Shown here: piece by piece, positions 1 to 30,056 of the stretch
How the letters are laid out: the number at the start of each line of letters is the position of its first letter
How positions within the stretch are numbered: the first letter of the stretch is position 1
Program-made: the position numbers and the translations under genes
IMG/VR virus record: IMGVR_UViG_2554235297_000015
DNA: 32,474 bases
Strand: one strand, 5' to 3'
Source: a virus
Taxonomy: Duplodnaviria; Heunggongvirae; Uroviricota; Caudoviricetes
Notes under the pieces: model-generated
Told to the model about the DNA's origin: nothing
The model's input: only the letters and a program-made list of their open reading frames with translations
The model's database searches: none

Positions 1-237
1 ATGATGGTTAGAAATGAAGTAATGAACAAAGACTGGCACCGCGAGTACATCGTTGCCGCTGTGCACACCAAAGGTTTTACATTGCGTGAACTTTCTGAAC
101 GCGCTGGTCTAAAAAAAGACTCTTTAAAAAATGCACTGTATCGCTCATGCCCTAAATATGAACGCATCATAGCCGATGCTATTGGTGTGGAACCTGCGGA
201 GATCTGGCCAAGCCGGTATGCCAGTAAGGCGGCGTAA
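1..237 (+). CDS. ner: Ner-like DNA-binding protein (Ner/Nlp family)
   Basis: 78 aa; conserved DWHR near the N-terminus and IWPSRY near the C-terminus, as in Mu Ner and E. coli Nlp. Lies immediately upstream of the transposase, overlapping it by 1 nt (TAATG). Confidence 0.8.
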   Translation: MMVRNEVMNKDWHREYIVAAVHTKGFTLRELSERAGLKKDSLKNALYRSCPKYERIIADAIGVEPAEIWPSRYASKAA

Positions 238-2279: not shown

Positions 2280-2297
2280 TTTAAAAGGTATTTAATT

Positions 2298-3191
2298 ATG
2301 AGTTTAATTACGCAATTAAATGACGTAATGGCCCGTCGCGGCTATACGCAGACCCACGTCGCCCGTGCTATTGGTCGTAGCAGCGCCGTTATCAACCAGT
2401 ATTTACAGGGTAAATATCAGGGCGATATGGCTGATATTGAAGAACGCATTTCTGCCTTTGTGACCCGTGAGCGGGAAAAGGAAAACAGCCGCCGTATTAA
2501 AGCGAAATTTGTTGCCACCGGTATGGCTGCCAAAGGACTGGAAGTGCTGGCCTATGCTCACCTGGAATGTGAAATCTGCGTACTGTATGGCGCGGCAGGT
2601 CTTGGCAAAACAATGATTCTGCGTGAATACGCCGCCAGAAACCGGGATGCGGTCCTGATTGAAGCTGACCCGGGCTATACAGCCAGAACACTGCTTGAGG
2701 AGCTGTGCCGCCAGCTGGGGGTAAAAGTTCGCGGCAATATCCACGAACTGATTGATGCATGTGTGCGAGAACTGCGTGATTCCGGTCGCCTGCTGATGGT
2801 GGACGAGGCTGAACTGCTCCCCTATCGCGCACTGGAGGTTCTGCGCCGTCTGCATGACAAAGCGGGTATCGGGATTGTCCTGGCGGGTATGCCACGCCTT
2901 CTGATTAACCTCAAGGGACGTCGCGGTGAGTTCGCCCAGTTATACAGCCGTGTGGCGCTGGCGCTTAACCTGGGCGATACGCTGTCGCAGGAAGATTTTA
3001 ACCAGATAGCCACCGGGCTGATGCCGGAAGCAGTAGAACCGGAAATCAGCGAGGCGCTTTACGAACGCTCGCTGGGTAATGCCCGCCGCCTCTTCAAACT
3101 GGCGCGCGGTGTGTACCGGATTTGTGATATCAGCGATGCACCGGTCAGTGTGCAGGCCATTGATAAATTCGCAGAAATGTTAATTCACTGA
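2298..3191 (+). CDS. MuB-like AAA+ ATPase, transposition target-DNA activator
   Basis: 297 aa. Walker A GAAGLGKT, Walker B-like LLMVDEAE, N-terminal HTH-like segment. Sits directly after the transposase as in Mu. Confidence 0.85.
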   Translation: MSLITQLNDVMARRGYTQTHVARAIGRSSAVINQYLQGKYQGDMADIEERISAFVTREREKENSRRIKAKFVATGMAAKGLEVLAYAHLECEICVLYGAAGLGKTMILREYAARNRDAVLIEADPGYTARTLLEELCRQLGVKVRGNIHELIDACVRELRDSGRLLMVDEAELLPYRALEVLRRLHDKAGIGIVLAGMPRLLINLKGRRGEFAQLYSRVALALNLGDTLSQEDFNQIATGLMPEAVEPEISEALYERSLGNARRLFKLARGVYRICDISDAPVSVQAIDKFAEMLIH

Positions 3192-3430
3192 TGGAGAACA
3201 AGACGATGGACAAGCAGACCATTAACGCCGTCCGTTCCCGTGCCCGTGTGGCCATCCACACCACTGGTGGTCGTGTAACGGGACAACATCACCGTTTACC
3301 TGTGGTTTATGCCTGCCCGCCCGTGGGTGGTCCTGTATGGCCGGTAACGGAAATCATCCAGACATTCAGCGGCCTGCGCCGCGTGGTGAAAACATCCTGT
3401 ATCGACGGCTGCACCGTCGTATGGCAATGA
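3191..3430 (+). CDS. hypothetical early protein with several Cys residues
   Basis: ORF overlaps the B stop. The more likely start is ATG 3206, preceded by GGAGAA with a 7 nt spacer. No recognisable family. Confidence 0.4.
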   Translation: MENKTMDKQTINAVRSRARVAIHTTGGRVTGQHHRLPVVYACPPVGGPVWPVTEIIQTFSGLRRVVKTSCIDGCTVVWQ

Positions 3431-3686
3431 GAGGAAATCAGAATGGCGGTCAAGTTAGAAGTAATTATCTACACCGATGAAAATGGCACGCTTCGTGTCA
3501 GGAGTATGGGGGCTATTGATAAAAAGGATTTACGGATGAAGAGGTCGGTGTAAGACAACGGTTATGGGAGGTAATGAATCAAACTCTTAATAAAGAATTT
3601 AACGGCGTTGATTTATTTTCTGTTGGCGTGGAACCCTGCGCGCATAACACACATTAATCTGTAAATATCACTGAGGTAATTTAATT

Positions 3687-4331
3687 ATGACGACTGAAAA
3701 TAAAGTTAAGCAATACACGAAAACTCAAGCGCCTGAAGGTTACTGGGTGGATGCCCGTGGCGTAATGACACCTGAAAGCCTTATCAAAGATATTGACCGC
3801 GACCGCGAGCAGCTGGTCGGTGAGCTTGTGGAGATGGTGATTGCTGCCTCCGCCTCACTGCGGGAACTGAAACTGCGTGCGTTTGGTGATATTCAGGCGT
3901 TTATTGACCTGTCGGCGGAGAAATACGGCGCTGTGAAAGGCGGTAAAAAAGGGAATATCACGCTTTACAGCTTTGACGGGCGTTACAAGATTCAGCGCGC
4001 CATGCAGGACCGTATCGCGTTTGATGAACGCATTCAGACCGCGAAGTCGCTGATTGATGATTGCCTGGCTGACTGGACGGAAGATGCACGCCCTGAAATT
4101 AAGGCCATCATCAGTGAGGCATTCAGCACGGACAAGGAAGGCAACATCAACACCGGTCGCGTTCTGGCCCTGCGTCGCCTCGAGATTGAGGACGAACGCT
4201 GGAATAACGCCATGTCGCTGATTGGTGAAGCCGTCCAGGTAATTGGCAGCAAAAGCTATATCCGCGTGTATGAGCGCGTCGGTGATTCTGCTGAATACCG
4301 CGCAATCCCGCTTGATATTGCAGGGGTTTAA
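3687..4331 (+). CDS. hypothetical early protein, 214 aa (possibly a DUF3164-type Mu-like prophage protein)
   Basis: Long clean ORF with GAGGT upstream of the ATG. The family assignment is from memory only. Confidence 0.6.
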   Translation: MTTENKVKQYTKTQAPEGYWVDARGVMTPESLIKDIDRDREQLVGELVEMVIAASASLRELKLRAFGDIQAFIDLSAEKYGAVKGGKKGNITLYSFDGRYKIQRAMQDRIAFDERIQTAKSLIDDCLADWTEDARPEIKAIISEAFSTDKEGNINTGRVLALRRLEIEDERWNNAMSLIGEAVQVIGSKSYIRVYERVGDSAEYRAIPLDIAGV

Positions 4332-4332
4332 C

Positions 4333-4566
4333 ATGCATCAGGATATCAAAGAGTACAGGGCTGGGAACCGTTGCGCAGCGTATTCGCTGGGCGCGTCCAG
4401 AGCAGAACAACGCGGCGATTATGCCGAAGCTGAAAAACTGTGGCGTAAGGCAGCACAAAGCCCGTGTAGTACCCTGCGCCGCATCTGGGCGGAACACCGG
4501 GCAGAGTTCTGTGCCAATGCTCACCTGAAAGGATGGAAGCCGCCTCATGAACGCGAAACGCTTTAA
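4333..4566 (+). CDS. hypothetical early protein, 77 aa
   Basis: ATG 4333 preceded by AGGGG with a 6 nt spacer, two bases after the upstream stop. The ORF-track start at 4243 overlaps the upstream gene and is less likely. Confidence 0.5.
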   Translation: MHQDIKEYRAGNRCAAYSLGASRAEQRGDYAEAEKLWRKAAQSPCSTLRRIWAEHRAEFCANAHLKGWKPPHERETL

Positions 4567-4738
4567 TCAGCTATATCCGCCAGGGACTCGCTTCATGCAC
4601 ATTGCACATCGGGCAGTGCGTGGTGGTCGGGTGGTAAAAACTGTTGCACCTGCCAGAGATTTTAAATGTGGTTGTGTGGTTGAAATTAATGTCGAGCCTT
4701 ATTTCGTTAAAGTCGAAACACTGAAAGCACCGCATTAA
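4547..4738 (+). CDS. hypothetical early protein, 63 aa
   Basis: Start overlaps the end of the upstream gene. No family recognised. Confidence 0.4.
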   Translation: MNAKRFNQLYPPGTRFMHIAHRAVRGGRVVKTVAPARDFKCGCVVEINVEPYFVKVETLKAPH

Positions 4739-4768
4739 TTTAATTTGTTTTTAATTGTTATTTAAAAC

Positions 4769-4800
4769 AGGCGTAAACCCGCAGGGGCTGGCTTACGCCT
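4769..4800 (-). terminator. stem-loop downstream of the reverse-oriented gene, putative terminator
   Basis: AGGCGTAA ... TTACGCCT inverted repeat (8 bp stem). On the - strand it is followed by an A/T-rich tract. On the + strand no T-run follows. Confidence 0.4.
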
Positions 4801-4878
4801 GAATCTGAGGAAGTTTATTTATGAATATTGCTAAGCAAAAAAAATTCGCCCGCGAAATTAATCTGACAATCGTTTGTT

Positions 4879-5097
4879 TTAATCGTCTTGCGACCAGTTC
4901 TCAATCGACAGCAGATGTTCATCCAGCGCCGCAGCCAGAACGAACTCCCCACGTTCCTGAAGGCCGTGCTGGAAGTTGCGTAATTCAGAATCCAGGGCGC
5001 TGAGGTTCAGACAGCCATTTTCTGAAAGCTGTTTAACCAGAAAGCTCCACGCAGCTTTGTTAGCAGTAATTGCTGCCGCAATTTCATCATCAATCAT
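4879..5097 (-). CDS. hypothetical acidic protein, 72 aa, reverse-oriented relative to the early operon
   Basis: The - strand ATG is preceded by AGGAG with a 7 nt spacer. A stem-loop follows the stop. It is the only convincing - strand gene in the window. Confidence 0.6.
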   Translation of the reverse strand: MIDDEIAAAITANKAAWSFLVKQLSENGCLNLSALDSELRNFQHGLQERGEFVLAAALDEHLLSIENWSQDD

Positions 5098-5131
5098 TTT
5101 TTAACTCCTGATTGGGTATGTTGGGGCAGCG

Positions 5132-5140
5132 ATTATGACA
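5132..5140 (-). promoter_or_regulatory. candidate extended -10 element (TGTCATAAT) for the reverse-oriented gene
   Basis: The - strand reads TGTCATAAT about 35 nt upstream of the - strand ATG, inside an 88 bp divergent intergenic region. Confidence 0.3.
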
Positions 5141-5185
5141 AGTGTTTTGTGGTTATAAGTTGATCAAAAACAATGAGTTACAACC

Positions 5186-5896
5186 ATGAAAGATAAATAC
5201 ATTGCCAAAATCAAAAAACTGTTACGCCTTGCCAAAGGAACATCAAGCCCGGAAGAAGCCGCTAACGCTATTGCAAAAGCCCAGGCTTATATGCGCCAGC
5301 ATGGTATCAGCGAAAACGACGCGGAATTGTTCGACATTCAGGAAGCTGCCAGCGCGGGTGCGCCGAGTGACGCCAGTACGCCGCCGCGTTATATGCACAT
5401 CCTGTGTGACCTGGTCTGTAAAGCCTTCGGTGTCGAGTGTTACATCTCCGGCGAATACCGGGCTTCTGGTTCACTTAAACGTTACGTGCGTTTTTATGGT
5501 CCTGACAGCCGCCCGGAAATCGCGGCTTACGCGTTTGATGTGCTTTCCCGTCAGATGATGGCAGAGCGCAAGAAATATCAGGATAAACACTGCAAACGTT
5601 GTGGTCCGTCCACGCGGGTAGCCCGTGGCGACCAGTTCTGCGAAGGCTGGGTCTTTGGTGCCCGTGATGTCATTGCGGTGTATGACGTCTCCCCGGAAGA
5701 AAAAAGCCGCCTTGAGCTTTACAGAAAGAACCTGCACAGCACTAAGGGACTGCGCGACGGGGATATGCGCACAGCTAAAGCGTGTCGGGGTGCAGAGTTT
5801 GCCGCTACTGCCGGTTTTATCGCCGGGAAGAACGCCAGGCTGCATCAGGGGGTTAATGGTCAGAGCAACAGACCGCTGGCACTGGGGAGGGTGTAA
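5186..5896 (+). CDS. hypothetical protein with a DUF2786-like N-terminus
   Basis: 236 aa. N-terminus KIKKLLRLAKGTSSPEEAANAIAKAQAYM resembles the DUF2786 signature common in phage proteins. Cys-rich C-terminal part (CKRCG). Confidence 0.6.
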   Translation: MKDKYIAKIKKLLRLAKGTSSPEEAANAIAKAQAYMRQHGISENDAELFDIQEAASAGAPSDASTPPRYMHILCDLVCKAFGVECYISGEYRASGSLKRYVRFYGPDSRPEIAAYAFDVLSRQMMAERKKYQDKHCKRCGPSTRVARGDQFCEGWVFGARDVIAVYDVSPEEKSRLELYRKNLHSTKGLRDGDMRTAKACRGAEFAATAGFIAGKNARLHQGVNGQSNRPLALGRV

Positions 5897-5898
5897 CG

Positions 5899-6126
5899 AT
5901 GGCTTTTAAACTTCTTAGTGTTACCGAAGCAATATACCAGCCGCCCGGAGAACGCCACGAATACAGGATGAATGACGGTAGCGCGGTGGTTGAGTTCCCC
6001 GGATATCCGGGGGCTTCCCGGTGGCGGTTCTATGACAGTGTGGGACGTCGGATTATTAAAAGAACCGTGCACAACAATATGAAGGCTGCCGTAGAACGTC
6101 ATAAGAGAAGGTTTAACTGCAAATGA
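5899..6126 (+). CDS. hypothetical early protein, 75 aa
   Basis: Strong RBS GGGGAGGG 5 nt upstream of the ATG. Confidence 0.55.
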   Translation: MAFKLLSVTEAIYQPPGERHEYRMNDGSAVVEFPGYPGASRWRFYDSVGRRIIKRTVHNNMKAAVERHKRRFNCK

Positions 6127-6353
6127 AAATTGAATTTTATGACCATGGGGTCACCGCAACTATCACTATTTCTTGTTGGTTCTGGGAGTTCCACCGTTAC
6201 TTCAGAGTTGTAGATGCTGCGCTGTTTGTTGCACCGGGAGCGTTACATCACAGTGGAATCGGTATTGTTATGAACACTGTCATCAGCGGTAAAACGGTCC
6301 CGATGTTGCGGGCGTTTAAAGTGGCAAAACAGGAGGCTGGCAATGGTCATTGA
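6123..6353 (+). CDS. hypothetical early protein, 76 aa
   Basis: ATGA start/stop overlap with the upstream gene. Weak RBS. Confidence 0.35.
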   Translation: MKIEFYDHGVTATITISCWFWEFHRYFRVVDAALFVAPGALHHSGIGIVMNTVISGKTVPMLRAFKVAKQEAGNGH

Positions 6354-6657
6354 TAAAACGATAACGATAGATGTAGCCATGAATACAGGTCTGGCGCTTA
6401 TCGGTTATGGCTATATCACTTTTATGTCATTCAGGTGGTTGATTTCTTCGCTCTTTAAGCAGCGTGAAAAACATCGTTGTAAAGACAAGCGCGCGAAGGC
6501 GCTAAATGCGTTTAATGACGCTTTTGATATTGACCATATGCAACAGGGCGACCCCGCACGCGTAATTACCCGGGGAGATATTGTAATTCTTGTGTACCGG
6601 AATGAAAAAAATGAACAGGAGACAACCAGTGAGTCAGCAAACCAGAATAAGCGATAA
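6343..6657 (+). CDS. small membrane protein, 104 aa
   Basis: AGGAGG 6 nt upstream of the ATG. Hydrophobic segment GLALIGYGYITFMSFRWLISSLF followed by a charged tail. AT-rich coding sequence. Confidence 0.55.
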   Translation: MVIDKTITIDVAMNTGLALIGYGYITFMSFRWLISSLFKQREKHRCKDKRAKALNAFNDAFDIDHMQQGDPARVITRGDIVILVYRNEKNEQETTSESANQNKR

Positions 6658-6793
6658 GAGTCTGACCAGACTGATTGCCGATGCGGACAAGGTGCTGGAG
6701 CGGAACTCCCCCGTTGCCGATGAGGAATGGTGGCAGGATTTCCGGGCTGCAATGCTGGAACTTCAGGAACGTCGTCGGGAGGTGTTGAAGTGA
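6629..6793 (+). CDS. hypothetical early protein, about 54 aa
   Basis: GTG 6629 preceded by AGGAGA with a 6 nt spacer. The ORF track opens at 6590 in the same frame. Confidence 0.4.
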   Translation: MSQQTRISDKSLTRLIADADKVLERNSPVADEEWWQDFRAAMLELQERRREVLK

Positions 6794-7059
6794 GTGAATT
6801 AAAGTGTCGAATTAATGGCAATCAGATAGAACCGTGTGCGGTACTGGCAAAAGCACTCGAATATGGAAATCCAGCCTTTAAGAGTAAAGGCATATTTATC
6901 CCGGAACGCGTGAATATAAACACCGGCGAGCCAGGCTTAGACATTGCTCAAATTCACTCCGGCCAATATGTCGGTCGTGGTGTTGCCATGTGTTTTTGCC
7001 CGTTCTGTGGTGAAAGTCTGAAAACATGGAAAAAGGAGGCAACCAGTGAGCGAGATTAA
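6790..7059 (+). CDS. hypothetical Cys-rich protein, possible zinc ribbon, about 89 aa
   Basis: GTG 6790 preceded by GGGAGG with a 7 nt spacer, GTGA overlap with the upstream stop. Contains CxxxxxxxxxC and CPFCG. Confidence 0.45.
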   Translation: MSELKCRINGNQIEPCAVLAKALEYGNPAFKSKGIFIPERVNINTGEPGLDIAQIHSGQYVGRGVAMCFCPFCGESLKTWKKEATSERD

Positions 7060-7543
7060 CTATCAGGCACTGCGTGAGGTGGCAGAGGCCGCGAAGGGGG
7101 ATACGACGTGGCAGAACCTACAGGCTTTTCATGCTGCGGCTACGCCGGAGGTTGTGCAGGCGTTGCTGGATGAAAACGAAAGACTGTGTCGCGATCTGAT
7201 AGCTCGTAATGGTGAGATTGAAGGGCTTCGGGAGTGGGCAGAAGAACTGGAGGCACGGGAGGTGGCTTTGCCAGTAGCGTCATGCATTGTTGAAGATGGA
7301 TGCATGTGTGTTGATGGGTTCAGTGAGTATGTAGGTCACTCGCTACCTGATGGAATGCATGAGCTTTATGCTGCCCCGCCAGCGTCGGTAGTGCCGGAAG
7401 GACTAGTTAAAGCAGTGCGTTTCTATGAACAGGTAAAGTGTGAGAATCCGCCAGTCGAAACCGGAGCATGGAAAGACGCGGTTGACTGGGTACTCAACGA
7501 GGCTTGCCAGGCTGTAAATATTGACGCCAAAGGAGGTGCGTAA
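7046..7543 (+). CDS. hypothetical protein, possibly Ead/Ea22-like
   Basis: GTG start preceded by AAGGAGG. N-terminus ALREVAEAAKGDTTWQ...AATPEVVQALLDENERL resembles the Ead/Ea22 prophage family. The family call is from memory. Confidence 0.5.
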   Translation: MSEINYQALREVAEAAKGDTTWQNLQAFHAAATPEVVQALLDENERLCRDLIARNGEIEGLREWAEELEAREVALPVASCIVEDGCMCVDGFSEYVGHSLPDGMHELYAAPPASVVPEGLVKAVRFYEQVKCENPPVETGAWKDAVDWVLNEACQAVNIDAKGGA

Positions 7544-7712
7544 TGCGTGTAGCGTTTATCGGTTTATTACCATACCCGACTCGTTTTTGGGCTTCTGCGC
7601 TAATTGCAAAGCCACATGCCCTGATGGCTGACAGCATCATCCCGGCACAAAAGCGCCATACCGGTATTGCTGCTGCACGACGCGAAGCAAAGAAACGCAG
7701 GAGAGCAAAATG
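7544..7712 (+). CDS. small basic protein, 56 aa
   Basis: Not in the ORF track (below its size cutoff). TAATG overlap with the upstream stop, ATGA overlap with the downstream start. Confidence 0.3.
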
Positions 7713-7898
7713 ATGAAAAACCGTAAGGCAAGACTGCTGATAGCAAAGCCAGGGCAACTTATCCGTATCTCAAATCGACTTGTTGTTCACTATAGATATC
7801 TTGGTTTTAGGGAGTGGTCCTCTATTCGTTTTTACGGTGTCTGGCGAAACAGAAGCGCGACACAAAACCGCTGGAAGAATCACACTAACGCAAAGTAA
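7710..7898 (+). CDS. hypothetical early protein, 62 aa
   Basis: AGGAGA upstream of the ATG. Confidence 0.4.
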   Translation: MMKNRKARLLIAKPGQLIRISNRLVVHYRYLGFREWSSIRFYGVWRNRSATQNRWKNHTNAK

Positions 7899-7915
7899 TT
7901 AAATAATAACCAATA

Positions 7916-7943
7916 GCAGACCAAAAAGTATTTTTTGGTCTGC
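7916..7943. promoter_or_regulatory. perfect 12 bp-stem palindrome (GCAGACCAAAAA gtat TTTTTGGTCTGC)
   Basis: Seen directly in sequence, followed by a second short inverted repeat CCAAAA-N6-TTTTGG (7943..7960). Lies in a 60 bp gap after the run of small early ORFs. Confidence 0.45.
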
Positions 7944-7956
7944 CAAAAGTGATGTT

Positions 7957-8244
7957 TTGGTCATTATGAAGATTGAACAAATCGGAATGGCAGCTTTCAG
8001 GCAACAGGCTGAAAGCGGTGGCGTGGATGAGTTCGTCGTGCAGCGGTTCGGTGGTGTGTATCATCTATTCGCTGTGAATCGCCGCGCCGGGGTGTCCTAT
8101 TTTCTACAGGAACGTCGTGGCGATTACAAGACATGGCTGTCTCTTGACCGTGCCGCTGCGTTCTTGTCAGGGATTGGCGTTTCACGTTTTACCGTGCGTT
8201 TTGAGGATAACAAACATGCTGAAAAAGATGATCGGGGCCATTAA
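7957..8244 (+). CDS. hypothetical protein, 95 aa
   Basis: ORF whose 3' end overlaps the gemA start. Alternative start ATG 7966. Confidence 0.4.
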   Translation: MVIMKIEQIGMAAFRQQAESGGVDEFVVQRFGGVYHLFAVNRRAGVSYFLQERRGDYKTWLSLDRAAAFLSGIGVSRFTVRFEDNKHAEKDDRGH

Positions 8245-8614
8245 AGCCGGTCAGGCGTATCTGGGGTGGGATGATGCCCTTTATCGCCAGACGCTGGCCC
8301 GCCTGACCGGTAAAACCAGCACCACACGCTGCAATCTCGATGAACTGCGCATCATCCGGGAATACATGCACGAACAGGGATTCCCGCGCAAGGCACCCGC
8401 TGGTAAAGGTCGCCGCCCTCGTGTTGCAATGAGCAGAAAATCAGTATTATCCAAAATTGAAGCGTTGCTGGCTGATGCCGGTCGTTCCTGGGCGTATGCA
8501 GAAGGACTGGCATCTCACATGTATAAGCAACATGTGATCGAATGGCTGACGGATGAACAGCTTTTTGGAGTGATGGTGGCGCTGGTTAAAGATTCAAGAA
8601 GGAGAAATCAATGA
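8216..8614 (+). CDS. gemA: GemA-like protein (Mu gp16 family)
   Basis: N-terminus MLKKMIGAIKAGQAYLGWDDALYRQTLARLTGK resembles Mu GemA. GAGGAT 7 nt upstream of ATG 8216. The ORF track opens the same frame earlier at 8117. Confidence 0.75.
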   Translation: MLKKMIGAIKAGQAYLGWDDALYRQTLARLTGKTSTTRCNLDELRIIREYMHEQGFPRKAPAGKGRRPRVAMSRKSVLSKIEALLADAGRSWAYAEGLASHMYKQHVIEWLTDEQLFGVMVALVKDSRRRNQ

Positions 8615-9087
8615 TGAAAAAATGGTTGTTTTGTTTAGTAGGGGTTATTTTCTCTTGTTCTGTGCTGGCACAGACAGAGGAACAGGCGCAAAAGGAACTG
8701 AAACGTTATCAGGATATGAAGCCATTGGCTGAACAGATGCTTCGGGAAAGTGGAAAACTTTATTACGCTATGCCAGAAGCTGCATCGCAGTATCAGCAGG
8801 GAAATATTGAAGAGTGGAAGAATATCAAAAAAGGACTAAAACAACTGGATGAACAGGCCAGTAAACTGGGGGACGACCCGCTTGATCCTGTGTATGGTTC
8901 CTGCATAAAAATGAAAAACCAGCTACAGGATTACTGGTCTAACGTTATCAGGGATGACAGGCAGTTTCTGGAGCGTTCAAGAAATCAGTTTAAAGAATAT
9001 CGTATGGATTGTTTTGATTCGTTTGTTTTTGGTAAAGAGCAAATAGAATCAAGAAAAGGCCTGGTTATTCTAGACCTGACTAAATAA
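8611..9087 (+). CDS. secreted or periplasmic protein of unknown function, 158 aa (AT-rich moron)
   Basis: AAGGAG RBS. N-terminal signal peptide MMKKWLFCLVGVIFSCSVLA with an AxA-like cleavage site before QTEE. Coding sequence is clearly more AT-rich than the flanking genes. Its own terminator follows. Confidence 0.7.
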   Translation: MMKKWLFCLVGVIFSCSVLAQTEEQAQKELKRYQDMKPLAEQMLRESGKLYYAMPEAASQYQQGNIEEWKNIKKGLKQLDEQASKLGDDPLDPVYGSCIKMKNQLQDYWSNVIRDDRQFLERSRNQFKEYRMDCFDSFVFGKEQIESRKGLVILDLTK

Positions 9088-9098
9088 GACTTAGTTTA

Positions 9099-9125
9099 GC
9101 CCCTGCCATGCAGGGGCTTTTTTTG
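9099..9125 (+). terminator. rho-independent terminator
   Basis: GCCCCTGC catg CAGGGGC stem-loop followed by TTTTTTTG. Confidence 0.8.
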
Positions 9126-9130
9126 TGGTC

Positions 9131-9158
9131 TGTACAGGCGATCATGTATGGCTATAAT
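9131..9158 (+). promoter_or_regulatory. candidate sigma70-type promoter for the Mor/C gene
   Basis: TGTACA (9131..9136), 16 bp spacer, perfect TATAAT (9153..9158), about 30 nt upstream of the ATG at 9188. Confidence 0.35.
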
Positions 9159-9187
9159 AACAGTAAGTTACTACCGGAGACGCCATC

Positions 9188-9655
9188 ATGCAGACCTTCA
9201 GTGAAACAGATCTTCGCGATGCGCAGGCACTGCTGCCCGATTCCGTGCAGCAACTGATTAGCGTGATTGGCTTCCCCGCCCTGACCCGGTTGATTCGTTC
9301 TTTTGGTGGCGTGACGTTAAGCGGTAAAACCGGCGTACACGCCGAACGCACCGGCGGTGTCCATGCCCTGTTACATGACGTGCTCACCGAAGACGAAATC
9401 AACAAACTGATCCGCTTTCTTGGCGGTGCTCCGTTTTACATTCCCCGTTGCGATCATGCGTTACGTGCCCTGCGTAACACCCGTTTTATGGCTGATTTAC
9501 AGCAGCATGTAAAAGACGGATGCTCACACCGGCAGGCGCTGGCACTGCTCTGTCCCCGTTACGGCATTTCAGACCGGTACGCATGGCAGCTGATACACCG
9601 ACGACAAAAACAGACTTCGCTGAAAAGCCCCACCCAGGTGGGGCTTTTTGATTAA
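9188..9655 (+). CDS. Mor/C-family transcriptional activator (Mu middle/late activator family)
   Basis: 155 aa. C-terminal HTH-like segment ...RQALALLCPRYGISDRYAWQLIHRR typical of Mor/C proteins. Located between gemA and the lysis genes as in Mu. GGAGA RBS. Confidence 0.7.
   Translation: MQTFSETDLRDAQALLPDSVQQLISVIGFPALTRLIRSFGGVTLSGKTGVHAERTGGVHALLHDVLTEDEINKLIRFLGGAPFYIPRCDHALRALRNTRFMADLQQHVKDGCSHRQALALLCPRYGISDRYAWQLIHRRQKQTSLKSPTQVGLFD
9627..9649 (+). terminator. rho-independent terminator overlapping the last codons of the Mor/C gene
   Basis: GCCCCAC ccag GTGGGGC stem followed by TTTTT. Confidence 0.6.
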
Positions 9656-9681
9656 TGGGCCTCAGAAAAAAGGAGACACTT

Positions 9682-9960
9682 ATGACCAACTATATGGCAC
9701 TTGGCGAGTATACGGCCTACTCAGAGCAGGCCCGGGATGCTGCCGGACGTCGCTTTGCTTATATGAAAAATTTGGCCAGTCAGTTAAACCGAATGGCCGA
9801 ACAACCGGATATGGTTGTTCAGGAAGAAGCGTTGCAGTGTGCCATTGCTGACATCATCGCCAGCGAAAACGAGATGCGCGCAGCGATGGAAAAGGCGAAC
9901 GCCTCTGCTCCGCTTTGTAATAAACCTCTTATTACGCCGGATTCTCTTTCCCGCTTCTGA
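9682..9960 (+). CDS. hypothetical protein, 92 aa
   Basis: ATG 9682 preceded by AGGAGA with a 5 nt spacer. The ORF track opens at 9655. No family recognised. Confidence 0.5.
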   Translation: MTNYMALGEYTAYSEQARDAAGRRFAYMKNLASQLNRMAEQPDMVVQEEALQCAIADIIASENEMRAAMEKANASAPLCNKPLITPDSLSRF

Positions 9961-9979
9961 TTTATCACCCCGCCGCCGC

Positions 9980-9997
9980 GGGGTGCTGAACTCCCCC
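9980..9997 (+). promoter_or_regulatory. dyad element copy A (GGGGTG ctgaa CTCCCC), upstream of the lysis cassette
   Basis: Imperfect copy of the GGGTG-CTGAA-CACCC dyad also found at 18138 and 30056. Overlaps an 8 bp GC hairpin at 9966..9985. Confidence 0.4.
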
Positions 9998-10142
9998 AGC
10001 AGTACCCACCACACCAGACCGTTTACCCTGTCCACTCAGACCACAAGGCACCTTAAGGGATAGCGCCCTGCAAAAGGCTTTTGTGCCTTTGACAGGGTGT
10101 TATTTACGGGCCGTCAGTGGCTCAGATTTACAGGAGAAACTC

Positions 10143-10535
10143 ATGTCTGAACCCTTATCAGGCGGCGGAGCTGTGGCAGTCACCATCGGTGGTGCCAGTG
10201 TGTTTGGCCTTCTCACCAATACCGATTTCGGGGTCGTGGTGGGCGCGTTTGCCGGGGCGCTTTTTGTTGTCACTCAGCAGAAAGAAATCCCGGTATGGCG
10301 AATGGCTATTCACCTGCTCGTCGCGTTTGTGGTTGGCGTTCTGGGGGCTGGCGTGGCTGCGTCACTGATGCAGTGGCTGACCCACTACAACGACAAACCG
10401 CTTGATGCATTGTGTGCGGTCGGTGTCTCGGCGTTATCCATCAAGATACTGACCTTTCTTTATCAACAGGAAATTTCATCGCTGTTCGGCCTGTTTTCCA
10501 GACTGCGCGGCGGAGGGGGTGGAAATGGAAAGTAG
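10143..10535 (+). CDS. holin-like membrane protein, 131 aa
   Basis: AGGAG with a 6 nt spacer before ATG 10143. Three to four hydrophobic helices. Immediately upstream of the endolysin. Confidence 0.6.
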   Translation: MSEPLSGGGAVAVTIGGASVFGLLTNTDFGVVVGAFAGALFVVTQQKEIPVWRMAIHLLVAFVVGVLGAGVAASLMQWLTHYNDKPLDALCAVGVSALSIKILTFLYQQEISSLFGLFSRLRGGGGGNGK

Positions 10536-10821
10536 CCTTGCCGGTATCGTGAACGTCTGGCTGTGTCTCGCCATTGTGCTGGGGTTGTTTGTGTATCGCC
10601 GCCACGGTGCGGCGCATAAACCGATGATTACCTGGCTGGCGTACTGGCTGATGCTCGGCTACATCATCATCCCGTTCCGCTGGCTGTCCGGTACATACAC
10701 GCACTCCAGCTGGCTGGTTGTGGCGCTGAATCTGGTTTTCTGTGCGCTTATCGTGTGGGCGCACGGGAATTTGTCAAAAATCCTTTCGTTACTGAGGCAT
10801 CCACATGAAATCAAAAGATGA
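10525..10821 (+). CDS. second small membrane protein, holin- or antiholin-like
   Basis: GGAGGGGG upstream. Three hydrophobic segments. The ORF track start is GTG 10519. Confidence 0.55.
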   Translation: MESSLAGIVNVWLCLAIVLGLFVYRRHGAAHKPMITWLAYWLMLGYIIIPFRWLSGTYTHSSWLVVALNLVFCALIVWAHGNLSKILSLLRHPHEIKR

Positions 10822-11350
10822 CATTTTTGATGAAGTCCTGGGCAAAGAAGGCGGTTACGTCAATCACCCGGACGATAAGGGCGGTCCGACCAAATGGGGC
10901 ATTACGGAAAAAGTCGCCCGCGCCCACGGATATCGTGGCGATATGCGCGATTTAACCCGCGAACAGGCGCTGGACATCCTTGAAGCCGATTACTGGTATG
11001 GCCCGCGATTTGACCAGATCGCCGCATTATCCCCTGATATTGCCGCAGAGCTGTGTGATACCGGTGTGAATATGGGGCCAACCGTGGCGTCCAGAATGCT
11101 TCAGCGCTGGCTGAATGTGTTCAATCTGCGCGGCAGGCTGTACCCGGATATGGACGCAGACGGACGCATCGGGCCTCGTACCATCAGTGCATTGCGCGCC
11201 TTCCTGAATAATCGCGGTCAGGACGGTGAACGGGTGATGCTGACGGCCCTGAACTGTACGCAGGGGGACCGCTATCTGGAACTGGCAGAGAAACGCGAGG
11301 CTAACGAATCGTTTGTTTATGGCTGGCTGAAGGAGCGCGTGGCGGTATGA
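10805..11350 (+). CDS. endolysin, GH108-type N-terminal domain with a peptidoglycan-binding C-terminal domain
   Basis: N-terminus DDIFDEVLGKEGGYVNHPDDKGGPTKWGIT matches the glycoside hydrolase family 108 signature. No N-terminal transmembrane or SAR segment. Confidence 0.8.
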   Translation: MKSKDDIFDEVLGKEGGYVNHPDDKGGPTKWGITEKVARAHGYRGDMRDLTREQALDILEADYWYGPRFDQIAALSPDIAAELCDTGVNMGPTVASRMLQRWLNVFNLRGRLYPDMDADGRIGPRTISALRAFLNNRGQDGERVMLTALNCTQGDRYLELAEKREANESFVYGWLKERVAV

Positions 11351-11529
11351 CGCGTCAGCACTGGACCCACAGAACGCCACGTAAAGCCGCGCGCTGTGTT
11401 CTGGCCCTGTTTCTGGTGATGTTGCTTCCGGTGGGATGCACAGACATTAACAGAGCGGGCCAGCTGTTTGACGCGGCGGCGCAGGTCTGCCGGATTATCG
11501 ATGGTATCCGGCAGTGTTCACAGAACTGA
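11347..11529 (+). CDS. small protein with signal-anchor and Cys (possible spanin or lipoprotein lysis accessory)
   Basis: 60 aa. Hydrophobic LALFLVMLLPVGC followed by a polar tail with two more Cys. The lipobox is not canonical. Position is right after the endolysin. Confidence 0.35.
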   Translation: MTRQHWTHRTPRKAARCVLALFLVMLLPVGCTDINRAGQLFDAAAQVCRIIDGIRQCSQN

Positions 11530-11549
11530 TTTTTTGAAGGTCTGACACA

Positions 11550-11756
11550 GTGAGCATTATCAGATTTACAGAATACAGAGGTTCAGGAGGTGCTGGCGCT
11601 GTCATGGTGCTCGCTGAACGCATCACCCATTTTTACCGTCAGTACGGTACACATGATGGCACGGTCATTGAACTGGATACCGGGAAAAACGTGTTTGTTC
11701 TTGAAAATCCCGACGAAGTTCAGCGCAGGATTGAACAGGCTCAGAAGGACACTTAA
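11550..11756 (+). CDS. hypothetical protein, 68 aa
   Basis: GTG start. Alternative start ATG 11604. No family recognised. Confidence 0.4.
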   Translation: MSIIRFTEYRGSGGAGAVMVLAERITHFYRQYGTHDGTVIELDTGKNVFVLENPDEVQRRIEQAQKDT

Positions 11757-12256
11757 TGGCGTGGTCACAGGATATCAGGGACAAAGTCCGTAACGGGTAC
11801 ATCTTTGACCAGCTTCCGCTGGATATCGTCGCCATGAAGTACGCCGTGCCGCACGATACCGCGCGGCGCTGGAAAACGCAGGCGATGAAGAACGGCGACG
11901 ACTGGGACAAGCTGCGGGCCGCTCACGCGCTCGCCGGTGACGGGCTGGAAAGTGTCGCCCGCACCGTACTTATCAGTCTGGTGGTGAAGTGTCAGACGAC
12001 GCTTGAACGGCTGAACCAGAACCCGGACATCCCGCCGCAGGAGTCCGTCGAACTGCTGGCGAGTCTGTCTGACAGTCTCAGTAAGGCGGTGTCCAGCAGT
12101 AAAAAAATCCTGCCGGAAACCGACCGGCTGGCCACGGCACTGGAAGTGGTGCAGCGGCTCGGCGCGTTCATCAAGGAGCGTCACCCGGCACAGTATGCCC
12201 CGTTTCTTGAGGTGCTCGAAGGCTTCGCTAAAGAGCTTGAGGATAATTTCAGTTAA
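11756..12256 (+). CDS. terminase small subunit, Mu gp27-like (DUF1804)
   Basis: 166 aa. Position immediately upstream of the large terminase. N-terminal DNA-binding-like region. Confidence 0.65.
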   Translation: MAWSQDIRDKVRNGYIFDQLPLDIVAMKYAVPHDTARRWKTQAMKNGDDWDKLRAAHALAGDGLESVARTVLISLVVKCQTTLERLNQNPDIPPQESVELLASLSDSLSKAVSSSKKILPETDRLATALEVVQRLGAFIKERHPAQYAPFLEVLEGFAKELEDNFS

Positions 12257-12262
12257 CCACAG

Positions 12263-12282
12263 CGGCCCGGTTTTCCGGGCCG
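12263..12282 (+). other. GC-rich hairpin between the small terminase gene and the methyltransferase gene
   Basis: CGGCCCGG tttt CCGGGCCG (8 bp stem). Only a weak U-tract follows. Confidence 0.35.
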
Positions 12283-12302
12283 TCTGATATTCGGGATTTG
12301 TA

Positions 12303-13043
12303 ATGCAAAAACAGATTATTGGTAACGCAACGTTGTATTGCGGTGATGTTCTTGATGTGCTGCCGGCGTTATCCGAACGTTTTGATGCCGTCATTACCGA
12401 CCCGCCTTACAGCAGTGGTGGCACACATAAATCAGACCGCAGCATGGCCCCTTCGGACAAGTATGTCGGTCACACCCAGTATGCCGAGTTCAGCGGGGAT
12501 AACCGCGACCAGCGCAGCTGGGCATACTGGAGCACCCTGTGGATGTCCGGGGCTGCCCGCCTTGTGCGCCCCGGTGGTTATGTCATGGTGTTCAGTGACT
12601 GGCGACAGCTTCCCACCATGACCGACGTTTTTCAGGCCGGTGGTGTGCTGTGGCGTGGTCTTGTTGTCTGGGATAAAACGCAGGCTTCCCGTGCGCCACA
12701 CACCGGCTATTTCCGGCATCAGGCCGAGTATGTGGTCTGGGGCAGCAACGGAAAACTCGACAAATGCCCGCACGGTGGCCCGTTCCCGGGTGTGATTACG
12801 CAGCGCGTTGTCCCGTCCGAAAAACTGCATATGACGGCAAAGCCAGTTCAGTTGATGGCCGAGCTGGTTAAACCGCTGGCACCGGATGCGCACGTTCTCG
12901 ATCCGTTTATGGGAAGCGGCACCACCGCCATCCCTGTACTGGCCCGTGGCGGACGGTTTACCGGCATTGAAATGACTAACCAGTATTTTGATATCGCCTG
13001 CGCACGTCTCGAAAAAGCGCAGGCAGAAGCAGCGCAGGTGTGA
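12303..13043 (+). CDS. orphan DNA methyltransferase, beta class (motif IV DPPY before motif I FMGSGTT), probably N6-adenine
   Basis: 246 aa. DPPY at about residue 33, DPFMGSGTT at about residue 200. No restriction endonuclease gene adjacent. Confidence 0.85.
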   Translation: MQKQIIGNATLYCGDVLDVLPALSERFDAVITDPPYSSGGTHKSDRSMAPSDKYVGHTQYAEFSGDNRDQRSWAYWSTLWMSGAARLVRPGGYVMVFSDWRQLPTMTDVFQAGGVLWRGLVVWDKTQASRAPHTGYFRHQAEYVVWGSNGKLDKCPHGGPFPGVITQRVVPSEKLHMTAKPVQLMAELVKPLAPDAHVLDPFMGSGTTAIPVLARGGRFTGIEMTNQYFDIACARLEKAQAEAAQV

Positions 13044-13044
13044 C

Positions 13045-14685
13045 GTGGCAAAACGTAAACTTTCCATTAAAGAGTTTCAGAGAAGCTTACAGGAGTACAT
13101 CGCCAACCTCCGCCAGACCATTGAGGCTGAATGTCTGGGGTTCGATGTAAACCCGCAGGCCACACAGGCCCGCCGGGCGGCAGTCTGTGACCCGGTGACG
13201 GGCTACGATTATTTTGTCGAAAACTATTTCCCGCACTACGTCCGCAACCCGGCAAAAAGCGAGCTGCATAAATACCTGTTCAGCCGTCTGCCACAGGTTG
13301 TGGCAAGCCCGGACCCGGAGAACGACGCCATCGCCGCGCCCCGTGGTGAAGCAAAATCCACGCTGGTGACTCAGCTGTTTACCCTGTGGAACATTATCCG
13401 GGCCATTAAACATTATCCGGTCATCATTATGGACAGTATCGACCAGGCTTATCCGATGCTGGAAGCCATCAAGGCTGAACTGGAATTTAACCCCCGTTTA
13501 AAAAACGATTTCCCGGAAGTGTGCGGACAGGGGCGCGTCTGGCGTATGGGGACCATCGTCACGGCCAACAATATCAAGGTGACCGTTGCTGGTAGTGGTA
13601 AAAAACTGCGTGGGCTGCGCCACGGTCCGTACCGTCCTGACCTGGTTATCCTCGACGACATCGAGAACGACGAGATGGTGCGTAGCCCGGAGCAGCGCGA
13701 CAAGCTGCATGACTGGCTTACCAAAACCGTGATGCCGCTGGGCGAGGCTGGCGGTAAAACCGATATTATTTATATCGGAACCATCCTGCATTACGACTCC
13801 GTGCTGTCGCGCACACTCAATAACCCGATGTGGAAAACAGCCCGCTTTAAGGCTGTTATTCAGTGGCCTGCCAACATGAAACTGTGGGACGAGTGGGAAG
13901 AACTCATCCGCAACAAACAGCCGGAAGCAGCGGAGGCACTTTACCGACAGAACGAAGCCGACATGCTCGCCGGGTCGGTGGTGTCATGGGCGGCGCGTCC
14001 CCTGCTGGCGCTGATGAAAATCCGTGTCCGTGACGGTCATGACACCTTTGATTCTGAATACCAGAACGACCCGGTCAGCGGTGAAGATGCGCTGTTTGCG
14101 GGCTGCATTAAGTTCTGGGTTAACCGTCTTGATGAATGGGTGTTTTATGGTGCTGTTGACCCCAGTCTCGGGAAGAAGAATAAAAACCGCGACCCGTCGG
14201 CCATTCTCGTGGGGGGCTTTAACCGTTTTACCGGCATTCTGGATGTGGTTGAAGCCGATATCCGCCGACGCCTGCCAAATAAACTTATCGAAGACGTGAT
14301 TAAGTATCAGCGGGAATACCACTGTCTGTGCTGGTCGTTTGAGTCCGTCCAGTTTCAGGAGTTTCTGCGCACCGTGCTGGTTGAGCGTTCGGCGGCGCTG
14401 GGCGTTCCGGTTCCGGCGCTGCCGGTCATCCCGCTGGAGGATAAAGCGCTGCGTATCGAATCCCTTCAGCCGCATATGGCCAACGGCCTGATCCGCATCA
14501 GTCCGGCACATCAGACGCTGATTGACCAGCTGCGCCACTACCCCAAAGCCGACCACGATGATGGCCCGGACTGTCTGCACATGCTGTGGACGCTGGCGGT
14601 ATCGCGTAGCGCAAAATTTCAGATACACACCCCACGCAGCACCGGGCGTGACCGTGGCGGGCGTTTTGGTTCAGGAGGATGGTAA
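13045..14685 (+). CDS. terminase large subunit, Mu gp28-like
   Basis: About 546 aa from GTG 13045, two bases after the methyltransferase stop. The ORF-track frame opens at 12988 inside the methyltransferase gene. Size and position match the Mu large terminase. Confidence 0.8.
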   Translation: MAKRKLSIKEFQRSLQEYIANLRQTIEAECLGFDVNPQATQARRAAVCDPVTGYDYFVENYFPHYVRNPAKSELHKYLFSRLPQVVASPDPENDAIAAPRGEAKSTLVTQLFTLWNIIRAIKHYPVIIMDSIDQAYPMLEAIKAELEFNPRLKNDFPEVCGQGRVWRMGTIVTANNIKVTVAGSGKKLRGLRHGPYRPDLVILDDIENDEMVRSPEQRDKLHDWLTKTVMPLGEAGGKTDIIYIGTILHYDSVLSRTLNNPMWKTARFKAVIQWPANMKLWDEWEELIRNKQPEAAEALYRQNEADMLAGSVVSWAARPLLALMKIRVRDGHDTFDSEYQNDPVSGEDALFAGCIKFWVNRLDEWVFYGAVDPSLGKKNKNRDPSAILVGGFNRFTGILDVVEADIRRRLPNKLIEDVIKYQREYHCLCWSFESVQFQEFLRTVLVERSAALGVPVPALPVIPLEDKALRIESLQPHMANGLIRISPAHQTLIDQLRHYPKADHDDGPDCLHMLWTLAVSRSAKFQIHTPRSTGRDRGGRFGSGGW

Positions 14686-14688
14686 TTA

Positions 14689-16284
14689 ATGGCACAGCTT
14701 GTTGATATTTACGGACGCCCGCTGAAATGTGAGGCACTCAAAACCACGCAGTCGGTCAGAGTGGCGGAACGGCTGCGCATTTATCCAGACCACCCGTCGC
14801 GTGGTCTGAACATCAGAAAACTGCCGCGCATTCTGGAAGCTGCCGAACGCGGCTATCTTCCGGCGCAGGCGATGCTGTTTGCGGACATGGAAGAACGTGA
14901 TGGCCATCTGTTCGCCGAGATGGAAAAGCGCAAAAAAGCCTTGCTGACACTGGACTGGTCGGTGGAGCCGCCCCGCAATGCCTCGAAGGCAGAAAAGGAG
15001 CTGACTGCCGCCGTGGATGAGTGGCTGCACGGCATCCCGGACATGGAGGACATCATCCTCAACGGGATGACCAGTGTCGGTTATGGCTTCAGTTGTCAGG
15101 AAATCAGCTGGGCGTTCGTGGATAAAACGTGGTTACCGGATGCGGTGACGCTGCGCCCGCATAACTGGTTTATTACCCTGCCGGAACACAATGACGAACT
15201 CCGGCTGGATGACGGCAACCGTGGGGAAGACGGTAAGGACGGTTCCGCATTGTGGCCATTCGGCTGGCTGGTTCACCGTTACAACGCCCGGTCGGGGTTC
15301 CTGGGGTCATCCGGCCTGTTCCGCGTACTGGTCTGGCCGTATCTGTTTAAAAACTTTGCGCTGCGTGATATGGCGGAATTTCTGGAGATTTACGGCCTTC
15401 CGGCGCGCATTGCCTACTATGCACAGGGCACCAGTGACGAAGACCGGGATAACATTCTTGAGGCGCTGGTCAATCTGGGGCATGAAGCGGTGGCAGCCCT
15501 GCCGCAGGGTAACGAGATTGAGTTCAAGGAAGCCGCATCCGGCGGACCGGAGGCGTTCATGTCGATGGTGGAATGGGCGGAGCGTACCACCTCAAAAGTG
15601 ATTCTGGGCAGTACGCTGACCAGCCAGGCCGACGGTAAAACCTCCACCAACGCACTGGGTAATGTCCATAACGAGGTCCGGCACGACATTCTGACCGCTG
15701 ATGCACGCCAGCTGTCCGGCATGTTCAGCAGTCTGATACAGATGATGGCCAGTCTCAACGGCTGGCAGGATATCCCGTCACGCCGTCTTCCGCGCCTGGT
15801 GTTTGATGTGCAGCAGGAAGCTGACATTAAGGGCGTGGCGGAAGCCGTCAGCGTGTTGCTCAACAATGTGGGGATGAAGGATATCCCGGCGTCGTGGGTG
15901 CGCAAAAAAACCGGCATCCCCACCCCGAAAGACGGCGAAGAGGTGCTGGTGCCGGTGGCACAGTCTCTCCCTGTGCAGGCCGGACTCAGCCAGCTGCGTG
16001 AGCGGCTGAATGTTGCCGCGCTCAGTCAGCAGGATAACGGGGAGGACGACCCGGCACAGAACGCCATCGACCGGGCAGAACTTCCGGCAGAGGTCATCGC
16101 GCAGGGGATGAACGAACTGGTGGCCCCACTGGTGCAGGCCATACAGGAAGGCCGGGATGCAGACGAGGCCATGAACGTACTGGCGGAAGCCTGGCCGGAG
16201 CTGCCGGATGACACACTGCGGCAGTTGCTGACGCAGGCATTCTTTGTGGCGGATATCTGGGGGCGACTGAATGCCGACAACTGA
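14689..16284 (+). CDS. portal protein, Mu gp29-like (DUF935)
   Basis: 531 aa, directly after the large terminase. Confidence 0.85.
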   Translation: MAQLVDIYGRPLKCEALKTTQSVRVAERLRIYPDHPSRGLNIRKLPRILEAAERGYLPAQAMLFADMEERDGHLFAEMEKRKKALLTLDWSVEPPRNASKAEKELTAAVDEWLHGIPDMEDIILNGMTSVGYGFSCQEISWAFVDKTWLPDAVTLRPHNWFITLPEHNDELRLDDGNRGEDGKDGSALWPFGWLVHRYNARSGFLGSSGLFRVLVWPYLFKNFALRDMAEFLEIYGLPARIAYYAQGTSDEDRDNILEALVNLGHEAVAALPQGNEIEFKEAASGGPEAFMSMVEWAERTTSKVILGSTLTSQADGKTSTNALGNVHNEVRHDILTADARQLSGMFSSLIQMMASLNGWQDIPSRRLPRLVFDVQQEADIKGVAEAVSVLLNNVGMKDIPASWVRKKTGIPTPKDGEEVLVPVAQSLPVQAGLSQLRERLNVAALSQQDNGEDDPAQNAIDRAELPAEVIAQGMNELVAPLVQAIQEGRDADEAMNVLAEAWPELPDDTLRQLLTQAFFVADIWGRLNADN

Positions 16285-29406: not shown

Positions 29407-30056
29407 TGTGGGACAAAGTTAATCAACGCGTACAGCAGGCACTGGCCGCCGTTCGCCAGGCATTCAGGGTGGTGACCGGTACGGTGGACAGTTCGACCAA
29501 AGTACAGCTGCTTCAGCTTAACGGGCTGGCTGGCGAACAGCTGGACGGTGCGGAGTATTTTCAGCATTACGGCCTCACCACATCCCCGCCGCCCGGCTCA
29601 ATGGGTATTGCCGTTCCGCTGAACGGCAATACCTCCCATACTGTCGTGGTGGCCACAGAGCACGGCGCATATCGTCTGACGGAACTGAAACCCGGGGAAG
29701 TGGCCCTGTATACCGATGAAGGCGCGAAAATCGTACTGAAGCGCGGACGGGTTATTGAAACCGAATGTGACGTTTATCGCGTGAAATGCAAACGCTACGA
29801 GGTTGAGGCAGAGGAGAACGCCACATTCACGACACCGTTACTGACAGCCAGTGACAGGCTGACGGTGGAAGGCAAAATCACCGGCAACGGTGGCATGGCC
29901 ATCAGTGGAGGCAAGGGATACACTGCCACCTTTGAAGGCAATATCAACCATGTGGGTGGAGTGATTACCTCCGTTGACGTCACCATTAATGGCGTTAAAA
30001 TCGGAACGCACAAACATCCAACCCCACACGGCATGTCTGACACGCCGGTTAATTAA
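29403..30056 (+). CDS. baseplate assembly/spike protein, Mu gp45-like
   Basis: 217 aa, ATGA overlap with P. Confidence 0.75.
   Translation: MMWDKVNQRVQQALAAVRQAFRVVTGTVDSSTKVQLLQLNGLAGEQLDGAEYFQHYGLTTSPPPGSMGIAVPLNGNTSHTVVVATEHGAYRLTELKPGEVALYTDEGAKIVLKRGRVIETECDVYRVKCKRYEVEAEENATFTTPLLTASDRLTVEGKITGNGGMAISGGKGYTATFEGNINHVGGVITSVDVTINGVKIGTHKHPTPHGMSDTPVN

Follow-up and report, generated by a model that had tools for sequence, protein, structure and literature searches.

Phage Mu has two paralogous transcription activators, Mor in the early operon and C in the middle operon. Genes of the Mor/C family are treated as core marker genes of transposable phages (PMC8705779). The C-dependent promoters of Mu have a −10 hexamer, no −35 hexamer, and an upstream site at about −30 to −55 (PMC2582627, PMC12867686). 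C supplied alone is toxic and activates the late promoters, and a β-clamp-binding motif found in the Mor/MuC family, with the C-terminal consensus QPDLF, is required for Mu C function (PMC12867686). In phage Fc02, the pE early operon includes a mor homolog, and induction is followed by transcription of the late gene clusters one after another (PMC9936078). On copy number, the literature yielded general statements only; an explicit statement on single versus double Mor/C copies was not found. Likewise, no published regulation data were found for the activators of SuMu, 3927AP2, the D3112/MP22-like phages, or ST405-OXA48phi1.1.

The locus described here lies in a stretch of 32,474 nucleotides, hereafter the window. 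The region from 8600 to 10100 is 100% identical to the genome of E. coli O127:H6 strain E2348/69 (NC_011601.1), and similar sequence is present in 58 of 5426 complete E. coli genomes. In the annotated host record, the region is part of a complete Mu-like transposable prophage of ~35.7 kb that sits within eutC, with eutC halves on both sides. The prophage spans 4946–40661 of the host locus, L001. The window begins at a ner-like gene and ends in the tail genes; of the prophage, only the repressor gene, to its left, and tail-fibre genes, to its right, lie beyond it. Searched with blastn, the region had no match in the phage collection, and the element is known only as a prophage, on which the literature offered nothing relevant.

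The gene content is typical of Mu-like phages. Pfam matches and annotation identify a Ner-type HTH protein, a Mu-type transposase, the B ATPase, a DUF3164 protein, GemA, holins, an endolysin, a DUF1804 protein, a DNA methylase, terminase, a Mu-type portal, the F protein, a protease, the major head protein, and sheath, tape measure, and baseplate proteins. The gene order is ner, transposase, B ATPase, GemA, a cargo ORF, the activator, holins, endolysin, portal, and F. That is, the activator gene is found where a transposable phage is expected to have it, 3′ of gemA and 5′ of the lysis and morphogenesis genes.

The activator gene occupies 9188–9655 on the + strand. It has a Shine–Dalgarno sequence, GGAG, at 9175–9178, encodes 155 amino acid residues with the C-terminus QVGLFD, and ends with a stop codon at 9653–9655. 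RefSeq labels it a Mor transcription activator family protein, and residues 59–143 match Pfam PF08765 (Mor) with 28.5 bits, a small margin over the cutoff of 24.9. The segment LGGAPFYIPR aligns with LGGRQFYIPC of Mu C and includes the GGxxFYIP linker. The AlphaFold model (mean pLDDT 82) has a strand at residues 83–85 with helixes on either side; fold searches with the model returned generic helical and HTH matches, and the Mor/C structures 1RR7, 9L0X, and 9L0Y were not retrieved. Residues Q150, L153, and F154 are nearly invariant in the activator's subfamily, and QVGLF fits the clamp-binding motif of the Mor/MuC family. Its resemblance to the motif of Mu C suggests that the activator may bind the clamp, and because of this resemblance late transcription may depend on phage replication too.

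An earlier note on this DNA, made from the letters of the window, had seen a single Mor/C-family gene, set it against the two activators of Mu, and allowed that a second might lie outside the window. Pfam, for the ORFs scanned, and a six-frame profile search both show 9188–9655 alone. Thirty ORFs, covering the early region, the repressor, and a few lysis and late-region ORFs, gave no other Pfam Mor match. With a subfamily profile, 822 family clusters were found in the library, and a Mor/C profile was built from ~135 of the family members returned. This profile was run against all stop-to-stop ORFs of at least 25 residues, in six frames, over L001 4900–40700. One match was found at E = 3e-55; the next best had E ~2. 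As a positive control, a profile without Mu sequences finds both Mu C (1.4e-8) and Mu Mor (2.9e-6) in the first 13 kb of Mu. The search took in the small early ORFs, among which a second homolog had been thought conceivable, and the rest of the prophage, and none was detected in either. For this prophage, a paralog beyond the window is excluded, since the search covered everything between the eutC halves. Within the reach of sequence profiles, the prophage has exactly one Mor/C gene.

The comparison with Mu is where the earlier note needs amending: the gene is indeed single here, but the Mu layout is the exception and not the default. A tblastn search with Mu C returned 56 phage records, in 14 of which the match fell in two places and in 42 of which it fell in one. 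The two-place records all belong to Muvirus, as follows: Mu, D108, SfMu, Yersinia YpM, and PhiR68_1. A search with the activator protein gave 154 places in 154 phage records; the 40 records listed of these have one place each, and most are D3112-like phages of Pseudomonas. In the phage collection, Mu-like phages usually have one activator. The relay from Mor to C is particular to the close relatives of Mu, and a single activator is no anomaly among transposable phages. The gene being already annotated as Mor family and one copy being usual, the finding of a lone activator is correct and largely ordinary, and its main value is one of calibration.

The question had also been raised of whether the gene groups with Mor or with C. 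It groups with neither. The activator scores 26.6 bits against C, over a 41-residue segment, and 25.8 bits against Mor, whereas Mor and C score 76.6 bits against each other. In a neighbour-joining tree, Mor and C form a clade without the activator in 100 of 100 bootstraps, a clade that also holds proteins of Vibrio martha, BcepMu, MuM16-1, and Pmp9 and Mu-like proteins borne by Stx phages. The activator's own clade, the SuMu/D3112-type branch, includes SuMu, MP22, Klebsiella ST405-OXA48phi1.1, and enterobacterial prophages. The dichotomy of Mor-type versus C-type is rejected, since the protein falls outside the clade that contains both. Searched against solved structures, the subfamily profile finds C with E = 9e-4 but Mor with only E = 0.78. 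Its alignment to Mu C includes the GGxxFYIP linker, the HTH region, and Q..LF at the C-terminus. An assignment as a Mor ortholog fails on three counts: a terminator cuts the gene off from the early operon, there is no second activator, and there is no grouping with Mor. An assignment as a C ortholog fails as well, given the position outside the Mor+C clade, a σ70-like promoter of its own, and late boxes of a different sequence, GTGCTGAAC. To summarize, the activator probably works like Mu C, though it is no C ortholog.

Among related loci, orthologs of the gene are wired in three ways. In the first, seen in Serratia, Aeromonas, and two metagenomic loci, the ortholog is 52–56% identical and shares bases with the end of gemA, and neither a terminator nor a promoter is present. 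The protein of the Klebsiella phage (41% identical) is likewise encoded by a gene that overlaps gemA, and MP22, BcepMu, and MuM16-1 have the same layout, with a single activator overlapping or abutting gemA. The second wiring is that of E2348/69, a Salmonella prophage (L003, 66% identical), and L006 (82% identical): gemA, a cargo ORF with a signal peptide, a terminator (T1), a promoter (P_act), the activator, and a second terminator (T2). SuMu provides an analogue, with a terminator and then a promoter before its single activator. The third is found in 5 of 23 related loci, from Xenorhabdus, Photorhabdus, and Morganella, which have two tandem paralogs ~0.6 kb apart (L015 at 1488–2959, and L021, L023, L026, and L028 at about 8900–10460). 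The activator groups with the distal paralog in 100 of 100 bootstraps, at 56% identity, and the ORF between the two paralogs is homologous to the cargo ORF of our prophage. The tree thus places the activator, within its own subfamily, as the ortholog of the distal, C-position copy. The distal gene of these relatives has a CTGAAC-box promoter upstream, followed by a hairpin with a T-tract that starts at about the expected transcription start. By this comparison, E2348/69 carries only the distal type, apparently rewired to a σ70-like promoter. Because a distinct two-activator layout occurs in the SuMu/D3112-type subfamily, relays exist there too, apart from the Mor/C pair of Mu.

In E2348/69, 9188–9655 forms its own small transcription unit: T1 ends the early operon, P_act drives the gene, and T2 closes the unit. 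The two flanking terminators and the promoter with a perfect TATAAT had been noted earlier, and all three are there, at the coordinates given. T1 (9098–9125, + strand) consists of a stem-loop at 9098–9118 followed by U7 at 9119–9125. Its 9-bp stem has 7 GC pairs and folds with −20.2 kcal/mol (z = −3.5), a stability reached by 1 of 200 shuffles. T1 is kept in L006, and in the Salmonella locus two stem pairs are altered on both sides, i.e., by compensatory changes. T2 (9622–9649, + strand) overlaps the last nine codons of the activator, encoding KSPTQVGLF, and folds with −20.6 kcal/mol (z = −3.5; 0 of 200 shuffles equal it). A simple scanner missed it because its T-tract pairs with the upstream A-tract. 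With an A-tract before the stem and a U-tract after it, T2 is potentially bidirectional. It is kept in L003 and L006; the Serratia locus (L005), where the C-terminus is QPGLF, has no T2 hairpin. The 3′ arm and T-tract of T2 (9634–9652) also encode QVGLF. The same bases specify an RNA structure and a protein motif, and this short stretch is therefore under two constraints.

P_act is a σ70-type promoter at 9131–9158 on the + strand, with the −35 hexamer TGTACA at 9131–9136, a 16-bp spacer, and the −10 hexamer TATAAT at 9153–9158. It matches the consensus at 10 of 12 positions, the −10 being perfect and the −35 matching at 4 of 6. A promoter scan of positions 1–20000 gave 4 sites versus 13.6 ± 3.4 in shuffles, with P_act the best of them. 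Elsewhere, another 10/12 site, TTGACG-16-TAAAAT at 29974–30001, lies inside the baseplate V gene, ~55 bp 5′ of the third late box described below. In three relatives, the blocks CTGTACA, CGATCA, and GGCTATAAT are unchanged, whereas the rest of the spacer and the flanks vary. Terminator, −35, and −10 are kept where the activator itself is only 82% and 66% identical, and the conservation of this predicted terminator-promoter module exceeds chance.

The surroundings of the unit are less constant. The cargo ORF (8611–9087, + strand) comes last in the early operon, shares 4 nt with the end of gemA, and encodes 158 residues with a signal peptide. It matches no Pfam family and is 29% identical (E = 1e-13) to an ORF in the same slot in Xenorhabdus. 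In the same slot, L003 and L006 have a different signal-peptide ORF of ~175 residues, unrelated to 8611–9087. The slot between gemA and the activator looks like a variable cargo, or moron-like, slot. On the other side, a conserved 92-residue ORF with a good Shine–Dalgarno sequence (9682–9960, + strand) lies between T2 and the first late promoter. It has no Pfam match and has counterparts in L003, L006, L017, and L018. As there is no space for a promoter of its own after T2, it can be expressed solely via read-through of T2.

Some further features of the early region deserve mention. A small early gene at 4333–4566 is annotated in RefSeq as an ANR-family transcriptional regulator (AraC negative regulator family), an unexpected cargo for the early region of a Mu-like element in an EPEC strain. 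Just 5′ of it, at 4288, is a weak late-box-like site with a weight-matrix score of 12. A perfect hairpin of 12–14 bp at 7914–7945, just 5′ of the ORF preceding gemA, is flanked by an A-tract and a T-tract, one at each end. It folds with −17 kcal/mol on one strand (z = −6) and −22 kcal/mol on the other (z = −7.5) and may be a bidirectional terminator dividing the early operon. Just left of the window, at L001 6029–6050, between the early promoter and ner, is a perfect dyad, GGATAACAC-N4-GTGTTATCC. It has one occurrence in the prophage and is probably the operator for the repressor or Ner.

The predicted targets of the activator are three late promoters. The 13-mer GTGCTGAACNCCC has exactly three perfect matches in the window, all on the + strand, intergenic, and at operon starts. 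The first predicted promoter (9983–10029) precedes the holins and would serve the lysis and packaging operon; its box, GTGCTGAAC, is at 9983–9991 and its −10, TACCCT, at 10024–10029. The second (18141–18187; box 18141–18149, −10 CATCAT at 18182–18187) precedes the protease/scaffold gene and would serve the head operon. The third (30057–30103; box 30057–30065, −10 CAGACT at 30098–30103) precedes a gp46-like baseplate gene and would serve the baseplate and tail-fibre operon. The motif reads GTGCTGAAC(N)CC..TCA, with a fixed 32 bp to the −10 hexamer. The box is ~53 to 45 bp 5′ of the predicted start, and there is a weak −10 (NA...T) and no −35. The same box is found at orthologous places in seven other loci (L003, L005, L006, and L015–L018), which include Salmonella, Serratia, Xenorhabdus, and Aeromonas. 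In all 13 of the compiled sites, position 43 is A and position 47 is T, i.e., at hexamer positions 2 and 6, for which the background is 4.7%; the hexamers include TACCCT, CATCAT, CAGACT, TACACT, CACAAT, and others. With a weight matrix, the three late sites score 33–36 bits and the next best site in the window 12.

Thus far viewed, the three predicted late promoters share the grammar of the C-dependent promoters of Mu with another recognition sequence. From the co-occurrence and position of boxes and gene, the activator would bind the GTGCTGAAC boxes and act directly on all three. At the head and baseplate promoters, an ATG is present 6–7 nt 3′ of the predicted −10 (18182–18197 and 30098–30112), and L003 and L005 have the same spacing. 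For late promoters 2 and 3, the predicted start thus coincides with an annotated ATG, which is unusual and counts against the explanation; either the transcripts are leaderless or the true start codons are further 3′. For this group of enterobacterial Mu-like prophages, the signature of GTGCTGAAC, 32 bp, and NA...T can be put to the test.

We consider it probable that the prophage has a single, insulated activator unit driven by P_act, whose product is a late-gene activator working at the three boxed promoters. The proposed sequence of events is as follows. The early operon, from ner, A, and B through gemA to the cargo ORF, would stop at T1. P_act would transcribe the activator, and T2 would close the unit. 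The product, a presumed functional equivalent of Mu C, would act directly on the late promoters at 9983, 18141, and 30057. Our guess, a weak one, is that P_act is a modest constitutive promoter with a low output in the lysogen. After induction, residual read-through of T1 from the derepressed early promoter may make the output of P_act effective, while replicative transposition would amplify the template and raise activator output. Threshold behaviour of an oligomeric activator could sharpen the switch. The outcome would be an early-to-late cascade without a dedicated Mor. The earlier note's suggestion of a simpler two-stage cascade is plausible; at the same time, a strong T1 and a conserved promoter of its own mean that a separate intermediate transcription unit still exists.

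How a near-consensus promoter before a potentially lethal regulator is tolerated in a lysogen is the question posed by this prophage. A promoter with a perfect −10 and a 4/6 −35 should fire in the lysogen, and Mu C alone is toxic, so that some unrecognised control of P_act is likely. We reject autoregulation by way of a late-type box in P_act: the best weight-matrix score there is −21.7 bits, against 33–36 bits at the late sites. A comparison of P_act with the c-ner region for a shared repressor- or Ner-operator-like sequence found only the 7-mer GGCTATA in common. Control of P_act by the repressor is unsupported, as the GGATAACAC-N4-GTGTTATCC dyad occurs once, at the early promoter.

The main rival to the single unit described above is a hidden regulator of P_act. 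That is, three stages remain, and P_act is switched on by an early protein outside the Mor/C family or held off by a factor expressed in the lysogen. GemA, the ANR-like protein, or another small early ORF could supply the regulator, and the T1 dyad or the palindromic CTGTACAG the site. A near-consensus promoter before a lethal regulator needs control; in Mu, by annotation and sequence, the early terminator dyad overlaps the Mor site at Pm; and in the close relatives with an extra upstream paralog, a boxed promoter of the activator type precedes the orthologous gene. CTGTACA and CGATCA are also conserved beyond what σ70 contacts need, although the invariant blocks fall on the −35 and −10 hexamers. 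No protein stands out as the regulator, however, and P_act shares no operator-like sequence with the c-ner control region, and we regard this rival as unlikely. Another proposal is that P_act is a replication-sensing promoter that replaces Mor. Dam methylation would hold P_act low in the lysogen, and the transposition burst, by producing hemi- and unmethylated DNA and more copies, would turn the activator on. If true, P_act would time the late genes without a middle activator protein. The prophage has 1.09 GATC per kb where its base composition predicts 3.8, a ~3.5-fold depletion; the host flanks have 5.2. One GATC, at 9141–9144 in the P_act spacer, is kept in three diverged relatives, and another, at L001 6008, is in the spacer of the early promoter; two of the five intergenic GATCs lie in promoter spacers. 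The intergenic excess (5 observed versus ~2.7 expected) is too small a sample to serve as evidence, and the proposal strikes us as a long shot.

Reliance on P_act itself may also be doubted. The activator could be simply the last early gene, expressed through a leaky T1, as in Serratia, Aeromonas, and the D3112-like and BcepMu-type phages, with P_act of no importance. Many relatives indeed have the orthologous gene overlapping gemA, without a promoter of its own. Here, however, T1 is a strong hairpin followed by U7 and maintained by compensatory changes, the −35 and −10 are invariant at 66% identity while neighbouring bases vary, and SuMu has the same terminator-then-promoter layout before its single activator. 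These features make an unimportant P_act very unlikely. Least probable of all, to the point of being remote, is a second Mor/C activator, either supplied in trans by another prophage or present as a too-diverged homolog among the small early ORFs. E2348/69 carries several prophages, the protein-level search covered this prophage alone, and very remote homologs can escape sequence profiles. The profile does, however, detect Mu Mor and Mu C, which are only ~26 bits from the query, and nothing else in the prophage does better than E ~2; moreover, P_act is no activator-type promoter.

The related loci also supply a comparison set: orthologous activators wired in three ways, i.e., fused to the early operon, placed behind a terminator and a σ70-type promoter, or placed behind an activator-type promoter with an extra paralog. 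Of the known systems, Mu C shares with the activator the Pfam family, the GGxxFYIP linker, an HTH region towards the C-terminus, and Q..LF at the end. Like C, the activator is encoded in a separate unit after an early terminator, just before the lysis genes, and the promoters predicted as its targets lack a −35 but have a −10 and, at about −30 to −55, an upstream site. The two differ in that the predicted box of the activator is GTGCTGAAC, whereas Mu C uses TTAT-N5-6-ATAA; in that the activator's own promoter is σ70-like, whereas that of C is Mor-dependent; and in sequence, the proteins being distant (26.6 bits over 41 residues) and the activator not being in the Mor+C clade. The prophage also differs from Mu in having no Mor, mom, or E18–E20 genes.

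Mu Mor belongs to the same family, and the single activators of Serratia, Aeromonas, MP22, and BcepMu occupy Mor's gemA-overlapping position. Unlike Mor, the E2348/69 activator is parted from gemA by a cargo ORF and a terminator, and no second activator follows downstream. The closest phage homologs, at 31–41% identity, are those of SuMu, Mannheimia 3927AP2, the D3112/MP22-like Pseudomonas phages, and Klebsiella ST405-OXA48phi1.1. Like the prophage, these have one copy, which lies beside or soon after gemA and ahead of lysis. MP22 and the Klebsiella phage depart from the prophage in that gemA and the activator gene overlap and the latter lacks its own promoter. The two-activator prophages (L015, L021, L023, L026, and L028) share with ours the late box, the orthologous distal gene, and the homologous signal-peptide ORF, but hold an extra proximal paralog in the early operon, and their distal gene is without T1 and a σ70 promoter. 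SuMu resembles the prophage in layout too, with a terminator and a promoter-like site before the activator and a terminator-like hairpin after it.
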